39,320 bases of DNA from an uncultured Gammaproteobacteria bacterium. Its GTDB lineage: Bacteria > Patescibacteriota > Patescibacteriia > Magasanikbacterales > GCA-002688135. The notes beneath the pieces were generated by a model that was not told the origin of the DNA, ran no database searches, and saw only the letters and a program-made list of their open reading frames with translations. Location of the stretch: positions 1 to 39,320 of the forward strand of contig CAZHXK010000002.1 in NCBI GenBank assembly GCA_964536565.1, given 5' to 3'. Of the stretch, positions 3,343-24,252 are shown one piece after another; position 1 is the stretch's first letter, and each line of letters opens with the position of its first letter. The position numbers and the translations under genes were made by a program.

Positions 3343-3863
3343 ATGATATATCTATACACCGGAACATCTTCCTTGGTGGGCTTGTCGATCACATCTGGCT
3401 CCCACGGGTCGATTTTAAATACATACGAGACAATTCGTGTCCCTGACTTGCAGGACTCAATTAGTTTTTGTGCAAGTTTATTTTTCATTTGTGCTGGCAT
3501 ACCAAACGTATACACCACATCTGCATCACTAAGATCAGATTTGAAACAACTCTCATGTCGCACCGTGAACCGATCCTTCTTCCCCATCTTCTTTCGTATC
3601 TGCGAGACCAGCGCAAGAGGCCACGCTCGTTCAATACCAATAATATCCGCCTCGCTGTTGTCATGCATGTACAAGCTCACACGCCCATTTCCACATCCAA
3701 TTTCATACACTTTTTCTCCTGGCTGTGCATCTATAAGTTTGTGGATGCGACTCAAGTCTTTGGCGCGAGCAGGAACCCATGGCGCGAGCGAATGTCCTGC
3801 TATCCCCAGCGACAAAAGAATGAGAAATACGATTACAAGAATGACAAACAGAAATATGTTCAT
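3339..3863 (-). CDS. class I SAM-dependent methyltransferase with N-terminal membrane anchor
   Basis: 174-aa ORF with a hydrophobic N-terminus (IFLFVILVIVFLILLSLGIAG) and SAM motif I YEIGCGNGRVS. It is tightly packed between two GT4 genes. Confidence 0.8.
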   Translation of the reverse strand: MNIFLFVILVIVFLILLSLGIAGHSLAPWVPARAKDLSRIHKLIDAQPGEKVYEIGCGNGRVSLYMHDNSEADIIGIERAWPLALVSQIRKKMGKKDRFTVRHESCFKSDLSDADVVYTFGMPAQMKNKLAQKLIESCKSGTRIVSYVFKIDPWEPDVIDKPTKEDVPVYRYII

Positions 3864-5061: not shown

Positions 5062-6467
5062 GTTTTTGTATTAAACTTCCACTTTCCGTACAAGACCACC
5101 CACGCAAGACCAACCGGGAACCATAACTTAGCATTAAAATACGATGTGTTAAATACCTGAAATGCGAGCGCACCAATCAGTGTGATATATGTAGCGAGTA
5201 TGAGGTTGCGATAATCTTTATTTTGAGACTCATGCCACGTGCGTGCCAATAGAAACAGCATGCGCATGAAGAACATAATGAAGAACACGAGGCCAATAAT
5301 TCCTGTCTCAAATAACAGTTTTTGCCCAAATCCATGAGCTTCGATCGGCCCACCATATTCGAGACTAAATGCAGTAGAGAGCCCAAGCGTAGGAATGAAC
5401 GTGCCGATACCACGCCCGATCCATGGTGTTTGTGCTGCCTGAATGAGCGAGAATCTTGTGAGGTCGAGTCGCGAGTCTGTCGATAGCTTCACAAAATCAC
5501 TTGCTGAAAAGATTGCCATATAACTCACTAATATTGCTCCCACAATGAGTAGTGGCCATGCACGGAGTAGTTTGTGAGACAAGTCGCGCGGTCTTATAAA
5601 CCACCATAATGCAATTAACTGTACCACCAAGACAATCCAAGCTGTTCTACCAAATGTGAGAAGTGTAATGATAATCATTGAAATACCTGCAAGCATGTAC
5701 CACTTTTTGAAATGCTCGTGCGTGTGCGTAGCAACGTAAAAAGTTAACGGAATAGTCGTAACGAGAAATTCAGACAGCAGGTTATGGTTTGTACCAATCG
5801 GAGCGATTCCTGCAAACACGAATGGCGATACTCGCCGCCATATTCCCCAGAACGGTTCACCTACAAAGAGCGATATTGCGCCGAATATAGCGACTAGAAT
5901 TCCTGACCATACAAACACATGAATTATGGTGCGAAGATGTTTCTTTGTTCTGACCATCCAGAATGGAAGTGCGACAAACGCAATGTATGTAAACAACACA
6001 AACCTCATGAAGTACTGGAGGCTGACCATTTGCATGTCTCGAGGTGCCCGGAAAATTGAAAGTATTGCAACAAGTAAAAACGGGACGTACCACTTAAACG
6101 CCGGGAGGTGATCTTTAATATGATGATATATATGCTTTACTCTTTCGTAGTGCACGAGATACATGCCAAATACGATCGTAATCGTCAGTGCAATAAAATC
6201 TCCAATTGGCGCGTCCCAAACACCGATAAAAGGAAGTGACCGAAGAAAAGCAAATTCGCTAAAGTTAAATGTAAGCCCGACAAAGGGGATGAGAAAAATA
6301 GTCAGGTAGAGCAATGGATATTTGAATGCCCATGTAATAACGACGAGCGTAATGACACCAAATATTGACAGCGCGTATTCTGCAGGAAGAAAGGATAATA
6401 TTGCAGCAAAGCCAATAAGGCCCATTACAGCGGTTGCTTTACGCATGGGGTGAGACGCGGTGTTCAT
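5058..6467 (-). CDS. O-antigen ligase / polymerase-like (Wzy_C-type) polytopic membrane protein
   Basis: 469-aa ORF that is almost entirely hydrophobic helices. It has a large loop containing TPWIGRGIGTF, which is typical of O-antigen ligase-like proteins. It overlaps the downstream GT4 gene by 4 nt. Confidence 0.75.
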   Translation of the reverse strand: MNTASHPMRKATAVMGLIGFAAILSFLPAEYALSIFGVITLVVITWAFKYPLLYLTIFLIPFVGLTFNFSEFAFLRSLPFIGVWDAPIGDFIALTITIVFGMYLVHYERVKHIYHHIKDHLPAFKWYVPFLLVAILSIFRAPRDMQMVSLQYFMRFVLFTYIAFVALPFWMVRTKKHLRTIIHVFVWSGILVAIFGAISLFVGEPFWGIWRRVSPFVFAGIAPIGTNHNLLSEFLVTTIPLTFYVATHTHEHFKKWYMLAGISMIIITLLTFGRTAWIVLVVQLIALWWFIRPRDLSHKLLRAWPLLIVGAILVSYMAIFSASDFVKLSTDSRLDLTRFSLIQAAQTPWIGRGIGTFIPTLGLSTAFSLEYGGPIEAHGFGQKLLFETGIIGLVFFIMFFMRMLFLLARTWHESQNKDYRNLILATYITLIGALAFQVFNTSYFNAKLWFPVGLAWVVLYGKWKFNTKT

Positions 6468-6532
6468 AGTTTGGTATTATAGCTTGTTTTGGTGAATAAA
6501 TAAACTCTACTCACATCCTTATGCCCGCAATT

Positions 6533-6559
6533 AAAAAAGCCCACGTATGTAACGTGAGC
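6533..6559 (-). terminator. intrinsic terminator after the 37-codon ORF
   Basis: The minus strand reads GCTCACGT-TACAT-ACGTGGGC followed by TTTTTT (plus-strand A6 at 6533-6538). Confidence 0.5.
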
Positions 6560-6573
6560 ATTGTTCCTACATC

Positions 6574-6687
6574 TCATCGGTTGATATCATTATAGATATC
6601 AGACGGATCATGACTGTATAAATTGCATAACGACAGGAGTATCCAAATCGCGATGCATGTCATGAAAATATCAATTGCTAATTCCAT
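6574..6687 (-). CDS. small hydrophobic peptide (37 aa), stand-alone transcription unit
   Basis: Not in the ORF track because it is under 60 aa. My translation is MELAIDIFMTCIAIWILLSLCNLYSHDPSDIYNDINR*. GAGAGGGGAG lies 4 nt upstream of the ATG. It has its own TTGACA-17-TAGTTT promoter and a downstream terminator. Confidence 0.5.
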   Translation of the reverse strand: MELAIDIFMTCIAIWILLSLCNLYSHDPSDIYNDINR

Positions 6688-6723
6688 TGTACTCCCCTCT
6701 CTGAGCACTCTACACTTATTACA

Positions 6724-6752
6724 AAACTACATCTCCAGCACCCTTCTGTCAA
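6724..6752 (-). promoter_or_regulatory. sigma70-type promoter for the small peptide gene
   Basis: On the minus strand, TTGACA (6752..6747), a 17-nt spacer, then TAGTTT (6729..6724). Confidence 0.45.
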
Positions 6753-6809
6753 TACAGAAAGGTCACTCAAGTATCTCCGCTATTTTTAAGTACCCTGCTT
6801 TCAAAGATT

Positions 6810-6838
6810 AAAAAGCCCTACTTCCGTAGAAGTAGGGC
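6810..6838 (-). terminator. intrinsic terminator of the Cys-rich lipoprotein gene
   Basis: A perfect 10-bp stem GCCCTACTTC/GAAGTAGGGC (6815-6824 / 6829-6838) with a 4-nt loop. It is followed on the minus strand by TTTTT and lies 9 nt after the stop codon. Confidence 0.8.
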
Positions 6839-6846
6839 AGTTGATT

Positions 6847-8757
6847 CTAGTCTCCGCAGGCCGCGTTGTCCTGAGGATCGAGGGCACAATAGCCGCCGTC
6901 CTCATCGCAGTCAGGAGTACCGTTTCCGTCGTAGTCGCCACCACAGAGGATGCAACCAGATGCCGGACCGAAACACACGAAGGCATTAGCCGTAAAGAAC
7001 GGGTCAGGTACCGGACGTGGGTCCATGAAGATGTCGTATGCAACCTCGACTCCTTCAAAGAAGAAGCGAAGCTTACCACATTGATCCGACAGAACCGCAC
7101 CACTCGTATCGCCGTCGACGAAGAGCAGATCATTTCCGTCCAAACCATCGAGATCGAACTCGATGTTGAAGCGGTGTAGACCAGCAAGGCCGCCAGACGT
7201 CGAGGAGTATACCGTATCAGTCGAAAGACCGAGGCCGGGATTCAGCGGCTTGTATGATGGGAACGAGACACTTTCGAAGTCATCGTGCACCACCGGGCCA
7301 CCAAACGAACATGCGCCAGTCGACTTGAAGGTCACCAACACACTACCAGAAACCGTCGGGTTACATTCGAGCTCGTCTTGCAGCCCGTTGCAATTGTCGT
7401 CGGTTGCGTTACCGCACCACTCCGGCTGAGCCGGATTGATGTTTGCATTGGAATCGTCACAGTCTGCGCCTTTGGCACAGCCTTCGCCGAAGCCGTCGTT
7501 ATCCTCGTCAGTGCAAGGAACCACACAATCCTCGTCTGCTTCCCCGTCACAGTTGTTGTCGGCTTCATCGAAGCAGACCTCAGTAACTGGAACGGTTTCA
7601 CCAAGACAGTCAGTCAGCTCGCCGAGCGCACAGACTTGCACACCATCGCCGCACGTACCCACACCAGACGTACCATCGGCACCGGTATAGCATGCAACTT
7701 GAAGTGCCTTGCCGTCGTCCCCTTCGTCAGCGACCGCATCGCAGTCATTGTCTTTGGAGTCGCAGGTCTCAGCCGCAGGGACCGTCTCGCCTACACAGCT
7801 TCCAAACGCACCATCAGCGCAGGTTTGCGTACCACCAGTACACTCACCCACATCTTCAGTTCCGTCTGGGCCGTTATAGCAATCTTGAGTCAATGCATCG
7901 CCGGCATCATCCTCATCGGATGCGCCGTCACAGTCATTGTCGAGTGAGTCACATGTCTCAGGCGACGGATCGCCAGGAGTCACACTACACACCTCACCGT
8001 TTTGCTCAGCGTTGCAGACAACCGTACCCGTGTTCTCGCACTCGCCAGTTCCGACCGTACAACCCGTTCCCAGGTTCGCAAAGTCTTCATCAGCAGCCCC
8101 GTCACAGTCATTGTCGTCACCGTCACATACGTCAGAGCTCGGCACAACTTCGCCATTGCAACTTCCGAATGCAGCGTCAGAACACGTCTGCGTTCCGCCA
8201 ACACACTCGCCTACGTCCTGAGTACCATCGGCACCATTGTAGCAGTCTTGCGTGAGCGGCTGACCAGCCTGATCTTCGTCGACCAGACCTTCGCAGCTGT
8301 TATCGAGACCGTCACAGACCTCCGGAGAGATCTTGAGAAGCGCCTCGAATTCGCAGTCGCTCGGAGAGCCACCAACACAGTTCTCAACCGTCGTCAGGCA
8401 CTCGCCCACACCACACGTGGTCTGGCCGAGTCCTTCATCTACTGCGTTATCGCAGTTGTTGTCCGCGCCATCGCACACTTCGTCACTCGGCGTGACCTCA
8501 CCTTCGCAGTCGGTGTACACACCGCCAACACAGGCTTGAACGCCGAACTTGCACGCACCGACACCAGCAGTGCCAGCCTCGCCAGTGTAACACTGGACAG
8601 ACGCACCATTTTCGTCGCACGCAGTGCCTGGCTCACCAGGCTCGAGAGCGCCTAAGGATTGCCCCAGCGCATTGCTGGGCAATGCGCCCGGCTCAATGTC
8701 TTGAGCACATCCGACGATGAGCACGCTTACTGCCAAAAGAAAAACCAGATATCGCAT
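6847..8757 (-). CDS. Cys/Asp-rich repeat lipoprotein (MopE-like putative metal-binding CDGxDNDCDGxxDE repeats)
   Basis: 636-aa ORF with a lipobox-type signal (MRYLVFLLAVSVLIVGC) and GGGAGG 6 nt upstream of the ATG. About 6 copies of a unit CY.G.DGT..VG.C..G.Q.C..G.F..C.GE..P..E.CD..DN.CD...DE are present. It is visibly GC-richer with GC-ending codons compared with its neighbours. Confidence 0.85.
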   Translation of the reverse strand: MRYLVFLLAVSVLIVGCAQDIEPGALPSNALGQSLGALEPGEPGTACDENGASVQCYTGEAGTAGVGACKFGVQACVGGVYTDCEGEVTPSDEVCDGADNNCDNAVDEGLGQTTCGVGECLTTVENCVGGSPSDCEFEALLKISPEVCDGLDNSCEGLVDEDQAGQPLTQDCYNGADGTQDVGECVGGTQTCSDAAFGSCNGEVVPSSDVCDGDDNDCDGAADEDFANLGTGCTVGTGECENTGTVVCNAEQNGEVCSVTPGDPSPETCDSLDNDCDGASDEDDAGDALTQDCYNGPDGTEDVGECTGGTQTCADGAFGSCVGETVPAAETCDSKDNDCDAVADEGDDGKALQVACYTGADGTSGVGTCGDGVQVCALGELTDCLGETVPVTEVCFDEADNNCDGEADEDCVVPCTDEDNDGFGEGCAKGADCDDSNANINPAQPEWCGNATDDNCNGLQDELECNPTVSGSVLVTFKSTGACSFGGPVVHDDFESVSFPSYKPLNPGLGLSTDTVYSSTSGGLAGLHRFNIEFDLDGLDGNDLLFVDGDTSGAVLSDQCGKLRFFFEGVEVAYDIFMDPRPVPDPFFTANAFVCFGPASGCILCGGDYDGNGTPDCDEDGGYCALDPQDNAACGD

Positions 8758-8957: not shown

Positions 8958-10274
<1,317 letters not shown>

Positions 10275-20155: not shown

Positions 20156-20737
20156 CTAATGGTATTTGCGAATGACGGCAGTGACGACACCTGCTACTTG
20201 GAGTTCTTCTTTAGGTACGATGGTTGGATAGTTTTTGTTAGCTGGTTTGAGTACTGTTTTTCCTCCGACTTTTTCAAAGTATTTCATGGTCCATTCATGG
20301 TCTACTTCTGCAACAATGATATCTCCTACGCGTGGCTGCTTACCTCGTTCGAGGAGTACGAGATCGTCTGGTTGAATTCCAGCCTCTATCATTGAGTCTC
20401 CCGAGACCTTGAGTAAGAAACTTGCAACATGATTTGTTATAAGGAAGTCATCGAGACTCATAATGTCACAGAGCTCTTCTTCAGCTGCTGAGGGAAACCC
20501 AGCCTGTACAGTTCCGATGAGTCGCGGACCACCCTTGATCCCTCGTGGTATCAATCTCCCTGCGCCATCTTTTTCTACCAGGCCATGTTCGATCATTTTA
20601 TCCACGATGCGTGCAACTGCTTGCTTTGACTTGAGCGCAAACAGTTCGCACATTTCAGAGTAACTCGGTAGTCGCTCATGTTCTTTTAAAAATATTCTGA
20701 GTTGTTCAATTCTTTTTTGAAATGTTTCTTTTGACAT
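20156..20737 (-). CDS. lexA: LexA repressor (wHTH + S24 self-cleaving peptidase)
   Basis: The ORF is 20156..20824 (GTG). I prefer the ATG at 20737 because the promoter and operator lie inside the 5' extension. It has the Ala-Gly cleavage site (VQAGFPS), Ser (GDSM) and Lys (WTMKYF) of the LexA/UmuD family, and an N-terminal HTH (SYSEMCELFALKSKQAVARIVDKM). Confidence 0.9.
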   Translation of the reverse strand: MSKETFQKRIEQLRIFLKEHERLPSYSEMCELFALKSKQAVARIVDKMIEHGLVEKDGAGRLIPRGIKGGPRLIGTVQAGFPSAAEEELCDIMSLDDFLITNHVASFLLKVSGDSMIEAGIQPDDLVLLERGKQPRVGDIIVAEVDHEWTMKYFEKVGGKTVLKPANKNYPTIVPKEELQVAGVVTAVIRKYH

Positions 20738-20802
20738 AGAAGGTTGAGCTGCGCGAGAGTCACTACCATCTCCGGCGCAGCTCGTTACTTTGTTATGATT
20801 AT

Positions 20803-20831
20803 ATTGTAGTGAACGATCGTTCACATGTCAA
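20803..20831 (-). promoter_or_regulatory. lexA promoter with embedded LexA operator (SOS box)
   Basis: On the minus strand, TTGACA (20831..20826), a 17-nt spacer, then TACAAT (20808..20803). The spacer is filled by the perfect 16-bp palindrome GTGAACGATCGTTCAC (20809-20824). This matches the GAAC-N4-GTTC Cheo-box type consensus. Confidence 0.75.
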
Positions 20832-20840
20832 TGTGGATAA

Positions 20841-20868
20841 ATATAAAACCGACGACCGTAGTCATCGG
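20841..20868 (-). terminator. second (tandem) minus-strand intrinsic terminator upstream of the lexA promoter
   Basis: On the minus strand, CCGAUGAC-UACG-GUCGUCGG is an 8-bp stem with one G.U pair that would be a C.A mismatch on the plus strand. It is followed by UUUUAUAUUU. Confidence 0.55.
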
Positions 20869-20901
20869 CTACCTGCGATCATCTCTCCGAGAAAGCCATG
20901 T

Positions 20902-20938
20902 AAAAAAAGAGCCGGCAGAGCTCCGTAGAGATACCGGC
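20902..20938 (-). terminator. minus-strand intrinsic terminator ending the candidate 0.4-kb RNA
   Basis: GCCGG...CCGGC outer stem (20911-20915 / 20934-20938) plus an inner CTC-CGTA-GAG stem-loop. It is followed on the minus strand by TCTTTTTTT. Confidence 0.6.
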
Positions 20939-21285
20939 AAGAGAAAAGACGGGCAAGTTATGTAGCAACGAGTAAAGTCGGCTATTAGCAGACAGTCTTT
21001 TAGGATGGTAAAGGTAACGTTACAACTTCGGCCCATCTAAGATGGAAGTGTGGATAAGTTGATGTCAGATGGAATATTAAGTCCTAGATAACCATCAAAC
21101 TTCGACCCACACAATGATTAGGTTAGAGGTGCCCACAGACGAATCCGTGGACACCCCCCTTTTATGGTGATAACCGTACGCCTTCGGCTCACAACGACAC
21201 ACACGTGTCGAGACGAGCAAGGAAATGGAACACGGAAGGTTGATGACCATAGGGCCATCAGTTGGTTCAGACGCCCATTCGGACG
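20905..21285 (-). ncRNA. candidate structured RNA of unknown class (about 0.4 kb)
   Basis: There is no credible ORF. The region is dense in hairpins, three of which contain G.U pairs only when read on the minus strand (21133-21150 with a UUCG loop; 21241-21260; 20849-20868). A perfect TATAAT lies at 21297..21292 (no good -35), and terminators lie at the 3' end. The 5' end is uncertain. Confidence 0.4.
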
Positions 21286-21403
21286 TCTGAAATTATAGAG
21301 GCGGCTTCAATACACTTTTTTACCATCTCTTAGCCACATACAAGCACATCTTGCATATTCCCTTTATATTTGACTAAATTTACCCAGAGAGCACACTCAG
21401 GGG

Positions 21404-21432
21404 TTGACAAGATCCTTTTTTTGTGCTAGTAT
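21404..21432 (+). promoter_or_regulatory. near-consensus sigma70 promoter driving the large candidate RNA
   Basis: TTGACA (21404-21409), a 17-nt spacer ending in TGC (extended -10 TGn), then TAGTAT (21427-21432). No protein-coding gene lies downstream for about 1 kb. Confidence 0.6.
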
Positions 21433-21438
21433 GAAATC

Positions 21439-22362
21439 ATCGTACCTGAGCGCGCCGAGTCTTTCACTAGCTCGCCAGGGACGCACAAGAGAAGTTGATT
21501 AGGCCCCCGCACATCACCCTGAAAAATGGGCCGCGGGAAAAAATTTGATCTTCGCTATTCAAAGAGGAGATAGTCATGAGGGGCTTCGACCCCGCATACT
21601 TTCTAGCGGATCGTGTGGCCGCTCGTTCGTTCCACACAACATGACGCCGGTCATGAGAGCAGCACTTATAGAATGAGACAGATGGTGCTGTTTGTAAGTT
21701 ATGAAGTGGAGCCTTGACGGGCAGAGAAACTTCCAAATGCCATAATGGGGATCCGGTGTTCTCCATTTCAACTATGATCGAAAAATAGAGCGAACGAAGT
21801 TCCCCTCGCATTCGATTGCGTCGGAGCAGGAGTCGCAGGCATGAGCCAAAGGATAGATGACTAGAGCTGCGTTAGTCGCGCAATCCGATGATGTCATTTT
21901 GCAAAGTAAGCACATCATCACAATGATCCCCGAGTGGTTCGTTGTAACAGATCGCTCTATATGTTTTAAAGGCGTGGCTGGAGAGGGCCGTGCACCAGAT
22001 CAGTTATAATCCTCTCAGAGTCTATAAGTGAGTTTGACTCGCTCCTGGCCATGGGTTTGGCTGGACGTAATAAAAACCCGAGCAGGTCACCCATACCTGC
22101 CAAAAGTTCCACGCAAGGACAAAAGGAGTACATGAATTGCGCTGACCACGCACTGTGATTCCCTGATTCACGGCACCGGTCAACCTATGGCGAAGCATTC
22201 TACCGACAACAGACATAGAAAACAAAATACCGATCACCAGAGGTAGCATTACCCAATCCCACGTGCAGTTTACTGCCAGAGAGCTGAGGGTATGCAAAAA
22301 AGCGCCCGCGATGGCGTACTGACGTAAACATCGTTGACGAGGACTCTACGGAGTCCTTTTCT
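21439..22362 (+). ncRNA. candidate large structured RNA of unknown class (about 0.9 kb)
   Basis: It is bracketed by the promoter at 21404-21432 and the terminator at 22340-22366. It has only short, non-protein-like ORFs and is visibly GC-richer than flanking genes. Many perfect 5-8 bp hairpins are present (21641-21656, 21889-21921, 22084-22102). Two helices have G.U pairs valid only on the plus strand (21658-21692, 21745-21766). Confidence 0.5.
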
Positions 22363-22366
22363 ATTT
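22340..22366 (+). terminator. plus-strand intrinsic terminator at the end of the large candidate RNA
   Basis: AGGACTC-TACG-GAGTCCT is a perfect 7-bp stem, followed by TTTTCTATTT. Confidence 0.6.
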
Positions 22367-22431
22367 GCCAAGATTTTTTAGACCCACGTATCCGATTGTC
22401 AGACCTGACTGCACATCAAGTTTTTAATATC

Positions 22432-22460
22432 AAAAAATCGCGATGTTCTCGCGATTTTTA
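22432..22460. terminator. bidirectional intrinsic terminator (end of the S41 protease gene)
   Basis: ATCGCGA-TGTTC-TCGCGAT is a 7-bp stem flanked by A6 on the left and T5 on the right. It overlaps the protease stop codon. Confidence 0.7.
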
Positions 22461-23705
22461 TAACTGTTCTCTGAGGAGTTCTTTTCCTCTTTCTAATACA
22501 GTATCAATCGTCAGATCCTCCCCCTGCTCAACAACTACATCCGGCTCAATTCCCTCTCCATTAATTCCCCTGTTATTTGGCGTGAACCATTCAGCTATCG
22601 TAATTTTTACCGCGGATCCATCAGAAAGTTGTTCTAAATCCTGTACTGATCCTTTTCCGAATGTTGTTGTTCCGATAATTGTTGCTGCTTCGTAATCTTG
22701 CAATGCTCCAGCGACAATCTCTGATCCAGATGCAGAGCCACCATTCACAAGCACGATCGTTGGCATTCCTTCCAAGCGCAACTTCCCTTCTCTCATGTAG
22801 TTTTCTATTGAACCATCTGAGAATCGCTCTATCACAACCGGGCCTGCGGGAATCCATTCTGATGCCATTTGTACTGCGGTTGTGAGGAATCCTCCTGGAT
22901 TATTTCTTAAATCAAGCACAACAGCTTTTGCACCAGCTGCGTGTGCATCACGAACTGCTTCGCCGAATAACTGCATTGTGTCACCTCCGAATTGTGCAAC
23001 CTTGATGACAGCTATGTCATCATCAATTTCCCACTGAACACTTTTGAGTACGATTTCTCCTCGTGTGATTGGCGTATCCTGAACCTCAGTAAATCCTTCT
23101 CTGAAAATTCCGAGTGTTACAATTGTTCCTTTTTTACCTCTGATCAAATCAACAGCCTCTTCAACGGACATCGTCAAAGATTCAACACCATCGATCGTAA
23201 CAATATGATCGCCCGCCTGAACCCCAGCGCGCTCTGCTGGTGTGTCTGGCAGTGGAGCTAGAATAACGAGACGCTTATCGCGTATACCAATCTCAGCACC
23301 AATCCCGAAGAATTTTCCAGACAGGTCACTTGTGAATCGCTCCGCTGTTTTTGGTCGGAGGAATGTAGAGTATGGATCATCGAGTGCACCCACGAGCCCT
23401 TCCAGTGATCCATAAAATAAATCGTCGTCATCCACTGGCTTATCTACAAATCGATCCTGAATAATTGACCATACCTCCCAATACAGTTTTGTGTCGACAT
23501 CATCATTCAGTAGGCCTTCTGCGGGAGTAATCAACGCTGGTGCTGCAGCTTGAACATTGTTAAGGCAACATTCTTTGCCTAGTACAGTCCGCTCAACCAC
23601 AACCCCTCCTGCAAACGCCGCAAGAGCTACGAATACTAAAACGTACCCAACAAAAAAACGCTTTATTGGGCGTGTCTTTTTTCTAGTTGTCCGTTTTTTT
23701 GGCAT
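22458..23705 (-). CDS. S41 family C-terminal processing peptidase (PDZ + tail-specific protease domain)
   Basis: The ORF is 22458..23741 (TTG). I prefer the ATG at 23705 (MPKKRTTRKKTRPIKRFFVGYVLVFVALAAF, a membrane anchor). It has a PDZ domain (GVQAGDHIVTIDG), the catalytic Ser motif NGGSASGSEI and the Lys motif TFGKGSVQ. Confidence 0.9.
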   Translation of the reverse strand: MPKKRTTRKKTRPIKRFFVGYVLVFVALAAFAGGVVVERTVLGKECCLNNVQAAAPALITPAEGLLNDDVDTKLYWEVWSIIQDRFVDKPVDDDDLFYGSLEGLVGALDDPYSTFLRPKTAERFTSDLSGKFFGIGAEIGIRDKRLVILAPLPDTPAERAGVQAGDHIVTIDGVESLTMSVEEAVDLIRGKKGTIVTLGIFREGFTEVQDTPITRGEIVLKSVQWEIDDDIAVIKVAQFGGDTMQLFGEAVRDAHAAGAKAVVLDLRNNPGGFLTTAVQMASEWIPAGPVVIERFSDGSIENYMREGKLRLEGMPTIVLVNGGSASGSEIVAGALQDYEAATIIGTTTFGKGSVQDLEQLSDGSAVKITIAEWFTPNNRGINGEGIEPDVVVEQGEDLTIDTVLERGKELLREQL

Positions 23706-24252
23706 GATCTGTAGTATAACAGAATTGATTAGCAACCTCAATTAGTGTCTTTTTTTGTTCCGATTCTTTTTCTTCTCTTCGAATTTTATCTTTTTTGAGC
23801 CAATCGAGTGCGCGATCCAGGATAAGCATCGTGTTCTCGTATCCGAGCAGTTTTCTTGACGCCGGCATACTTACCCATCGAATAGCTTTAATCTTTTCCT
23901 CTTTTTGTGGCGTTCCTTTTTCTGATGGTCGCACCTCCATGAGGAAATAGTGAACAACCTTATGAATGCGTAAATTTTTTCGAGTAAATGAAAATTTGAT
24001 TTGTCCAAGCGGCGCCTTCACGCGCAATGATTTTAATCCCATTTCTTCTTTGGTTTCGCGGACTGCAGCTGCTTTAATTGTTTTATCTATATCTTCAAGA
24101 TGTCCTTTTGCGAAAATCCACTTTTTGTATGGATCCAAAATGAATCCTATAAGGATTCGTCCATTGACTCTTTTGAAAACAACTCCGCCCGCAGATACTT
24201 CGTTCACATGCTTCAGTTGTTTTTTTGGTTTATTGTGGAGATGTTTGGGCAT
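23683..24252 (-). CDS. NUDIX hydrolase
   Basis: 189 aa with the Nudix box GHLEDIDKTIKAAAVRETKEEMGL (Gx5Ex7REUxEExGU pattern) and a Lys/Glu-rich C-terminal tail. Confidence 0.85.
   Translation of the reverse strand: MPKHLHNKPKKQLKHVNEVSAGGVVFKRVNGRILIGFILDPYKKWIFAKGHLEDIDKTIKAAAVRETKEEMGLKSLRVKAPLGQIKFSFTRKNLRIHKVVHYFLMEVRPSEKGTPQKEEKIKAIRWVSMPASRKLLGYENTMLILDRALDWLKKDKIRREEKESEQKKTLIEVANQFCYTTDHAKKTDN

Follow-up and report, generated by a model that had tools for sequence, protein, structure and literature searches.

The window analyzed here is a 39,320-nt stretch of a contig from an uncultured bacterium, and the subject of this analysis lies between lexA (20156-20740, minus strand) and a gene for an S41 peptidase (22458-23741, minus strand), which are separated by a 1.7-kb (1720-nt) gap without open reading frames (ORFs). 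The lexA-side 0.46 kb of this gap (20841-21297) holds, on the minus strand, a structured feature with three modules that resemble Y RNAs, the obligate partners of Ro60 in RNA quality control. The window neighbors are housekeeping genes, with glycosyltransferases, purA, nrdD, a PAS-sigma factor, dinB, a NUDIX protein and murA in addition to lexA and the S41 peptidase gene. The closest LexA proteins come from metagenome-assembled genomes of the Parcubacteria group, Uhrbacteria, Komeilibacteria and Falkowbacteria, and the chromosome is that of a member of the Patescibacteria, or Candidate Phyla Radiation (CPR). This host, an ultra-small CPR bacterium, is an unusual one for Y-RNA-like genes.

A first-pass annotation had placed a candidate RNA on the minus strand of this region and reported that 20.9-21.3 kb contains no ORF. 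The latter holds under codes 11, 4 and 25: the longest stop-free frame of 20841-21297 reaches at most 65 codons with code 11 and at most 93 codons with codes 4 and 25, and its small ORFs have no match in Pfam. An alternative genetic code (4 or 25) for the RNA region was rejected, since it gives no long ORF. A single independent Logan unitig covers 20531-22920 and the whole 1720-nt gap is present at 100% identity in two other assemblies, so that the gap is not an assembly artefact. The region was also rejected as a miniature inverted-repeat transposable element or other multicopy repeat, with no second copy in the window or in the contigs of the sole metagenome run that holds the sequence, and a blastn search of the region against phage and plasmid sequences gave no match.

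The structured feature on the minus strand at 20841-21297 is real. The hairpins that had been described as fully paired only when read on this strand do behave in this way: those at 21133-21150, 21241-21260 and 20849-20868, together with one at 21266-21291, each contain one minus-strand G.U pair that becomes an A-C mismatch on the plus strand. In the minimum free energy structure of the minus strand, 13 G.U pairs are spread over nine local helices, versus none for the same hairpins on the plus strand, where they are broken into pieces of 4-8 bp; this one-sided pattern matches selection on RNA, and not on a DNA palindrome. The folding energy is -164.6 kcal/mol for the minus strand (z -6.6) versus -140.5 kcal/mol for the plus strand (z -4.3). 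When both strands of the whole window were scored in 457-nt tiles, the minus strand of this region came out as the most structured (z -5.3), against a background of 172 tiles with a mean of -0.43 and an sd of 1.41. Next in rank, after the tiles that overlap the region, comes tile 6399-6855 (minus strand, z -4.45), which spans the start of a Wzy_C-family gene and the gap before a gene with a MopE motif. Within the region, a 24-nt repeat of the form UGRGYCGAAG-N8-UUAYC (repeat family D1) occurs three times on the minus strand with spacings of 74 and 82 nt, and none of 400 shuffles contained a comparable triple repeat.

Upstream of the array, the only good -10-like element is a perfect TATAAT at 21292..21297 (minus strand), which is the putative promoter. 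As noticed in the first-pass annotation it has no usable -35, and it also lacks a TG extension; in the promoter scan no minus-strand site with at least 9 of 12 matches came up here, and neither the scan nor a reading of the sequence revealed a better minus-strand promoter at 21298-21440. Two simple hairpins and a composite one are located at this end of the unit on the minus strand: H1, an 11-bp hairpin (UUCAGACGUCC-GAAU-GGGCGUCUGAA, 21266..21291) with one U.G pair, reduced to 8 bp on the plus strand, which would form a 5' leader element; H2, an 8-bp hairpin (UGAUGGCC-CUAU-GGUCAUCA, 21241..21260) with one G.U pair; and H3 (21187..21218), in which GCUCG...UGAGC encloses CGACAC-GUGU-GUGUCG (helix probabilities 0.86 and 0.99). 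The 3' strand of H3 overlaps the first bases of module A.

Module A (21120..21191, minus strand) is a partial Y-like unit of repeat family D1, in which the 5' strand motif UGAGCCGAAG is followed by GCGUACGG-UUAUCA. It has no recognizable 3' strand and carries a 15-bp hairpin (21158-21125) at the place where a phage unit has a tRNA T-arm. In an nhmmer alignment of 21191-21087 with positions 3563-3667 of phage locus L089 (E 5.7e-5) the hairpin falls on GGUCGCGGGUUCGAGUCCCGUC; although aligned to the phage T-arm, it has a 4-nt UUCG loop in its 15-bp stem and is not accompanied by a D-arm. Module B (21048..21113, minus strand) is a complete Y-RNA-like hairpin recovered by both covariance models discussed below (R1 and RF01656), with a lower stem GUGUGGGU/AUCCACAC, a bulged C, GA/UU, an upper stem UUUGAUGG/CCAUCUGA, the loop UUAUCUAGGACUUAAUAUU and the 3' strand CAUCAACUU. 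Module C (20946..21040, minus strand), recovered by the same two models, is likewise complete, with a lower stem AGAUGGGC/GCCCGUCU, a bulged C, an upper stem UUGUAACG/CGUUGCUA, a loop of about 50 nt that opens with UUACC, and the 3' strand CAUAACUU followed by a U-rich tail. Common to B and C are the 5' strand GGGYCGAAG, which contains a GNCGAAG motif, the bulged C, the 8-bp upper stem and the 3' strand CAUNAACUU.

The unit ends in two terminators on the minus strand, as proposed in the first-pass annotation. Terminator 1 (20902..20938) consists of GCCGGUA..UACG..UGCCGGC followed by UCUUUUUUU, and terminator 2 (20835..20870) of a 10-bp stem, AGCCGAUGAC-UACG-GUCGUCGGUU, followed by UUAUAUUUAU. 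A terminator scan of this strand places sites at 20924..20908 (with a T7 tail) and 20870..20847. The second abuts the LexA-operated lexA promoter, its tail running into the conserved promoter region.

The identity of the modules was derived from phage homologues. IMG/VR was scanned with the 24-nt repeat motif and, in a second round, with GGGCCGAAG-N6-GGTTATCA, which yielded about 30 stretches; the phage loci referred to here (L080-L107) come from this source. Most stretches hold the same hairpin, which has a lower stem GGGGY/RCCCC with a bulged C, GA paired with UU, an upper stem of 8 bp whose sequence is free, a loop that opens with UUAUCA, and the 3' strand CA-N-CAACUU. Modules B and C have all of these parts, of which the 3' strand and the complementarity of the upper stem lie outside the search pattern. 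In longer phage versions the loop contains a T-arm and a D-arm, as in the design of YrlA. The covariance model R1, constructed from 10 phage copies only and run over the whole window without filters, found module B (21110..21050; 53.5 bits, E 1.2e-11) and module C (21036..20949; 28.7 bits, E 3e-5) on the minus strand as the only significant matches, with E values of at least 2 for all others; module A scored 8.1 bits (E 6). Over 768 kb of CPR lexA loci R1 found nothing. The phage loci contain 60 copies, usually in tandem, at a spacing of about 70-85 nt versus 74 and 82 nt in the window, and the score of module B lies within the range of rsr-linked phage copies (26.7-70.6 bits). Across 58 distinct copies 94.7% of the cells are paired and the covariation score is 0.704 versus 0.222 for shuffled and about 0.09 for slid alignments, a score that is favored by the fitting of the alignment to the model, though the margin is large; double changes occur at all eight of the upper-stem pairs.

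The same two modules are matched by the Rfam model RF01656, which represents the nematode stem-bulge RNAs (sbRNAs) CeN72/CeN74-2, homologues of Y RNAs (PMC4450293; PMC4726728). In a 261-nt search module B was aligned end to end at 34.6 bits (E 1e-5, or about 1.5e-3 when scaled to the window) and module C at 23 bits (E 0.012). With this model the phage copies reach 25-34 bits, short of the gathering score of 38, and they also give weak matches to the YrlA and Y_RNA models. RF00019 and RF02553 had no match in the window; all three models were made for eukaryotes or for the tRNA-like YrlA. Among bacterial Y RNAs, YrlA and YrlB carry close to their 5' ends the motif GNCGAAN0-1G, which is the likely contact with Rsr, the Ro60 orthologue, and resembles the vertebrate GGUCCGA to which Xenopus Ro60 binds (Chen et al., 2014; PMC4201824). 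On the minus strand of the window this motif is present as GGGUCGAAG in module B, GGGCCGAAG in module C and GAGCCGAAG in module A. The architecture of sbRNAs and Y RNAs comprises a lower stem with a single bulged C, an upper stem, a loop whose 5' end reads UUAUC, and a U tail (Kowalski et al., 2015; PMC4450293). The lower stem with its single bulged C is found in B and C, with all pairs standard in both the R1 and the RF01656 alignments, and is missing from A. The loops start with UUAUCU (B), UUACCU (C) and UUAUCA (A), and this UUAUC-type loop start goes together with a covarying upper stem.

Judged by sequence and structure, modules B and C are members of the Ro60-binding hairpin family. The first-pass annotation had assigned the candidate to no known RNA family and had named its recognition, by a covariance model, as a known housekeeping RNA among the outcomes that would refute it; the core turns out to consist of two complete and one partial Y-RNA-like hairpins (R1; RF01656 below threshold). 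It is a known kind of RNA and not a new class, while its host and context are unusual. A housekeeping RNA (RNase P, 6S, tmRNA or signal recognition particle RNA) or a riboswitch was rejected in the absence of an Rfam or ARAGORN match, and ARAGORN and the Rfam tRNA model found no tRNA or tmRNA in the region.

Among the ORFs next to the phage arrays, proteins with TROVE and Ro60-vWA domains were found in 10 out of 10 cases tested. The fetched stretch includes rsr at 18 of the 22 module-bearing loci, mostly just downstream and on the same strand, and lacks it at the others (L083, L085, L091 and L104). Tandem arrays of up to 10 Y-like hairpins are located directly upstream of phage rsr (L102, 9483-10286; also L080, L081, L090, L097 and L098). 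Matches of about 124 nt to the tRNA model, with an insert of about 50 nt bearing the Y 5' motif, occur at L081 (2558-2681) and L080 (1067-1190 and 1194-1318), and in a phage tRNA cluster a Y-like hairpin is found between tRNA-Met and tmRNA (L083, 12046-12105).

Among the CPR lexA loci compared, the unit is restricted to one lineage. For the three closest species, the identity of LexA is 90% (loci L001 and L002) and 92% (L078), and for L079 it is 74%. Homology to L001 and L002 extends from the lexA promoter, which L078 also shares, to about 20840-20843 and resumes at about 21361, in a T-tract before the promoter of a large plus-strand unit. The stretch in between (20843..21360, 518 nt) is thus a lineage-specific cassette that holds the whole unit, as delimited with nhmmer, alignments, ORFs, tblastn and Pfam. 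The corresponding slot of L001, L002 and L078 is occupied by a divergent gene for a secreted Cys-rich protein of 500-530 amino acids with a MopE metal-binding motif, and in L002 by an extra gene of 75 amino acids. The cassette was rejected as a pseudogene of either gene for lack of tblastn or nhmmer similarity, and no homologue of it was found among 79 CPR lexA loci. An imperfect 21-nt inverted repeat (20827-20847/21363-21383, 76% complementary) brackets the cassette, with its arms almost exactly on the homology boundaries; it is AT-rich and could be due to chance.

The large plus-strand unit (21404-22365) has a promoter, TTGACA-17-TGnTAGTAT, that starts at 21404, 107 nt from the TATAAT; the divergent arrangement described in the first-pass annotation is supported. 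Its promoter, first ~25 nt, several hairpins and terminator are all conserved in L001 and L002. The co-occurrence of both RNAs beside lexA in relatives, which had been put forward as a check, was not observed: L001 and L002 keep the large unit and not the cassette, L078 does not have the cassette, and L079 has neither RNA, its gap showing no similarity. The large unit has no match in Rfam or in the phage loci, and its tiles are not among the most structured of the window. Pairing between the two RNAs was rejected, as the energy of their duplex is no better than that of shuffles.

In L001, a small unit of its own (9649-9876, plus strand, in the orientation of lexA) lies between the Cys-rich gene and lexA, with a near-consensus promoter (TTGACA-17-TACTAT), two paralogous hairpins (9738-9781 and 9790-9835) that show compensatory changes in their stems and keep the loop GGGNCGAAKCAAAG..CCAAAC, and a terminator that resembles terminator 1. 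This look-alike hairpin with U7 stands directly upstream of the lexA promoter, and its alignment to terminator 1 is not significant (p ~0.06). As a homologue of the array the unit was rejected, because R1 finds no Y module in it and it is not significantly alignable; its position corresponds to that of the array. Overlapping its -35 is a stretch (9629-9656), GUUGGCCGAAU-CU-CACUAACUUGAC, that looks like the Y 5' and 3' strands without the middle (5.7 bits, E 1.9).

We consider it probable that the interval is a minus-strand transcription unit encoding a tandem array of Y-RNA-like hairpins of the Yrl/stem-bulge type. In Mycobacterium smegmatis, YrlA and YrlB are cut from one precursor (PMC4201824). 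By analogy with such characterized Y RNAs, a primary transcript of about 0.38-0.45 kb would be processed to Y RNAs about 65-95 nt long, each lower stem would bind one ring of Rsr, and the variable loops could tether or gate partners such as PNPase. The RNAs might then serve in the decay or repair of structured or damaged RNA under stress, and the two intrinsic terminators would halt the transcript before the LexA-controlled lexA promoter. UV raises the level of the Y RNAs of Deinococcus radiodurans (PMC4201824), and in Salmonella the rsr-yrlBA-rtcBA operon is reported to be expressed in the SOS response (PMC9879122); the place of the array beside lexA-dinB may therefore be meaningful. Nevertheless, a DNA-damage link of the array is only suggestive, as no LexA box was seen at its putative promoter. 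The sole perfect LexA box of the window (GAACGATCGTTC, 20811-20822) is that of lexA itself, located in the lexA promoter with TTATCCACA abutting, and LexA control of the array was rejected on this ground.

Several observations weigh against this interpretation. The array sequence occurs in no RNA-seq run, so its transcription is something that we infer. The promoter consists of a -10 hexamer only, and the start predicted from it (~21286-21284) falls inside the 11-bp hairpin H1 (21291-21266), which makes the assignment doubtful; the first-pass annotation, which listed the TATAAT at the putative 5' end of the RNA, was right about the presence of the hexamer, while the predicted start casts doubt on its use. 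Module A is degenerate. The phage copies were gathered with the 5' motif of the window, which makes the R1 score partly circular, though this does not apply to the RF01656 matches or to those of the 3' strand and upper stem. Both RF01656 scores are below the gathering score of 38, and Rfam searches at gathering thresholds over the whole window, or at E values up to 10 over 1.8 kb and 571 nt, gave nothing relevant, the sbRNA model coming through only in the 261-nt scan. The cassette is missing from the three closest species, and neither Pfam nor tblastn turned up a protein with TROVE or Ro60-vWA domains anywhere in the 39 kb.

The last point deserves attention, since a position no more than a few kb from rsr, and on its strand, is typical of the known bacterial Y RNAs and was the criterion for their discovery (Chen et al., 2014; PMC4201824), and the array has no rsr for a neighbor within the 39-kb window. 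A protein search for Rsr gave at least 8000 matches, and that none of the best 120 is named from the CPR is no verdict on the Patescibacteria. A full-text search of the literature found, among the matches listed, no paper that joins Ro60 or Y RNA to the Patescibacteria or the Candidate Phyla Radiation.

With no rsr in 39 kb, absence from relatives and a degenerate module, a captured phage relic is a serious rival, even if we regard it as unlikely. The array would then stem from an rsr-Y RNA cassette, of phage or bacterial origin, a fragment of which recombined into the variable slot upstream of lexA without its rsr and is now decaying, non-functional and maybe still transcribed. Such an origin fits the occurrence of the array in one species only, with a protein gene in the slot of the relatives, the loss of the 3' half of module A, the weak promoter and the position of the phage arrays next to rsr. 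Decay is less easily reconciled with a module B that scores within the range of the rsr-linked phage copies (53.5 versus 26.7-70.6 bits), with wobbles that in all nine hairpins keep the pairing on the RNA strand (13 to 0), or with two intact terminators, and some phage modules, too, have no rsr in the fetched stretch (L083, L085, L091 and L104).

Rather less probable still is an organism without any Ro60/Rsr gene, in which this would be a free-standing host Y-RNA array at the locus of the SOS regulator, working Ro-free or on a foreign Ro60; in the latter version it might be a decoy that titrates Rsr brought in by large phages, or it might use the Rsr of the host cell of the epibiont. An improbable counter-phage or Ro-independent reading has the hairpins act, in an organism without Rsr, as a decoy for phage Ro60 or without Ro altogether, as has been proposed for the upper stems of Y RNAs and sbRNAs in DNA replication. 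That many large phages carry rsr together with Y-like arrays, that the window has no rsr, and that sbRNAs and Y RNAs have Ro-independent functions (PMC4450293) would agree with it. However, the counter-phage role is speculation, the absence of rsr is seen within the 39-kb window only, and no defence genes flank the locus.

We consider it very improbable that the region is an insulator or regulatory DNA element for lexA, with terminators that block read-through, DnaA-box-like sites and incidental hairpins. It does contain two perfect TTATCCACA sites 217 bp apart, and the terminators abut the lexA promoter. However, DnaA-like boxes with up to 2 mismatches show no enrichment, the second TTATCCACA is the 3' strand of module B, and the strand-specific G.U pattern and the covariance-model matches are features at the level of RNA. 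An unrelated, new class of small RNA is hardly tenable, since two independent covariance models put B and C in a Y/sbRNA-like family despite the lack of an Rfam match at gathering thresholds.

Other elements of the locus lie outside the RNA. The neighboring lexA promoter (TTGACA-17-TACAAT, 20803..20840, minus strand) is abutted at its -35 by a perfect DnaA-box 9-mer, TTATCCACA, at 20832-20840 (minus strand). At least 16 further CPR loci, with LexA proteins down to about 50% identical, have this 9-mer on the same strand at a distance of about 60-370 nt upstream of lexA (L001 at 9883, L002 at 5034, L003 at 9922, L009 at 9927, L015, L016, L020, L032, L048, L052, L054, L057, L060, L062, L064, L068 and L078). 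Such a recurrence exceeds chance by far and points to a DnaA input into the transcription of lexA in this group. A DnaA-box cluster, a datA-like element or an origin was rejected, with no enrichment of boxes at up to 2 mismatches and no change in gene orientation or GC skew. At the other end of the gap, a perfect 11-nt inverted repeat (AAAAATCGCGA/TCGCGATTTTT, 22433-22459), just downstream of the stop codon of the S41 peptidase gene (22458-22460), looks like a bidirectional terminator and accounts for spurious weak matches to the rimP leader.

To our knowledge, bacterial Y RNAs have so far been found by searching beside rsr. An array directly upstream of lexA-dinB, with no rsr within 39 kb, would mean that Y RNAs can be encoded far from rsr, or without it, and if they can be encoded far from it, rsr-anchored searches miss many.

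When the array is compared with known systems, tandem stem-loops in a CPR genome also bring to mind the TIGR stem-loop guide-RNA arrays of CPR bacteria and phages (PMC12045711). The units of TIGR-Tas have two spacers of 8-12 nt flanked by box C/D, and an adjacent Tas protein with a Nop domain (PMC12045711). A TIGR array was rejected here, as the window ORFs include no Nop-domain Tas protein and the motifs differ from box C/D with dual spacers.

Similar to YrlA and YrlB of S. Typhimurium and M. smegmatis (RF02553; PMC4201824), the modules are stem-loops with a variable loop, of which several are encoded in tandem. The T-arm-like hairpin of module A may stand where YrlA-type units carry their tRNA-like domain. 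In contrast to YrlA, the window array has no D-arm or full tRNA-like domain, and unlike YrlA and YrlB it lies in a 39-kb stretch that contains no rsr. The window modules show both strands of the Ro-binding helix, of which the Y RNAs of Salmonella and M. smegmatis have a recognizable 5' strand only. In this they resemble Yrn1 and Yrn2 of Deinococcus radiodurans, which have kept both strands as in metazoans (PMC4201824). Yrn1 and Yrn2 are tied to UV and DNA-damage stress, and the window array adjoins the SOS genes lexA and dinB; unlike the array, the Yrn RNAs sit upstream of rsr and need Rsr to accumulate.

With nematode sbRNAs and vertebrate Y RNAs (RF01656, RF00019) the modules share the lower stem with a bulged C, a G-C-clamped upper stem of 8-9 bp, the UUAUC start of the loop, the 3' strand ..CAACUUG.. 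and, after module C, a U-rich tail. They differ from these RNAs in their bacterial host and in forming a single array with bacterial terminators instead of separately transcribed genes, and the upper-stem motif A/GUG-CAC/U is not evident. The arrays of IMG/VR phages have the same module in tandem copies and mix simple hairpins with units that contain tRNA-like parts, and nhmmer detects similarity of the window array to phage loci L089 and L081. In contrast to the phage arrays, which are followed by rsr tens to hundreds of nt further on, on the same strand (18 of 22 loci), the window array has terminators and lexA behind it. Hairpins of this kind, in which the metazoan-type Ro-binding helix is present with both strands, are common in tandem arrays upstream of phage rsr and inside phage tRNA clusters, and together with the near-threshold match to nematode sbRNAs the phage arrays tie the Y RNAs of phages, bacteria and animals more closely than YrlA alone.

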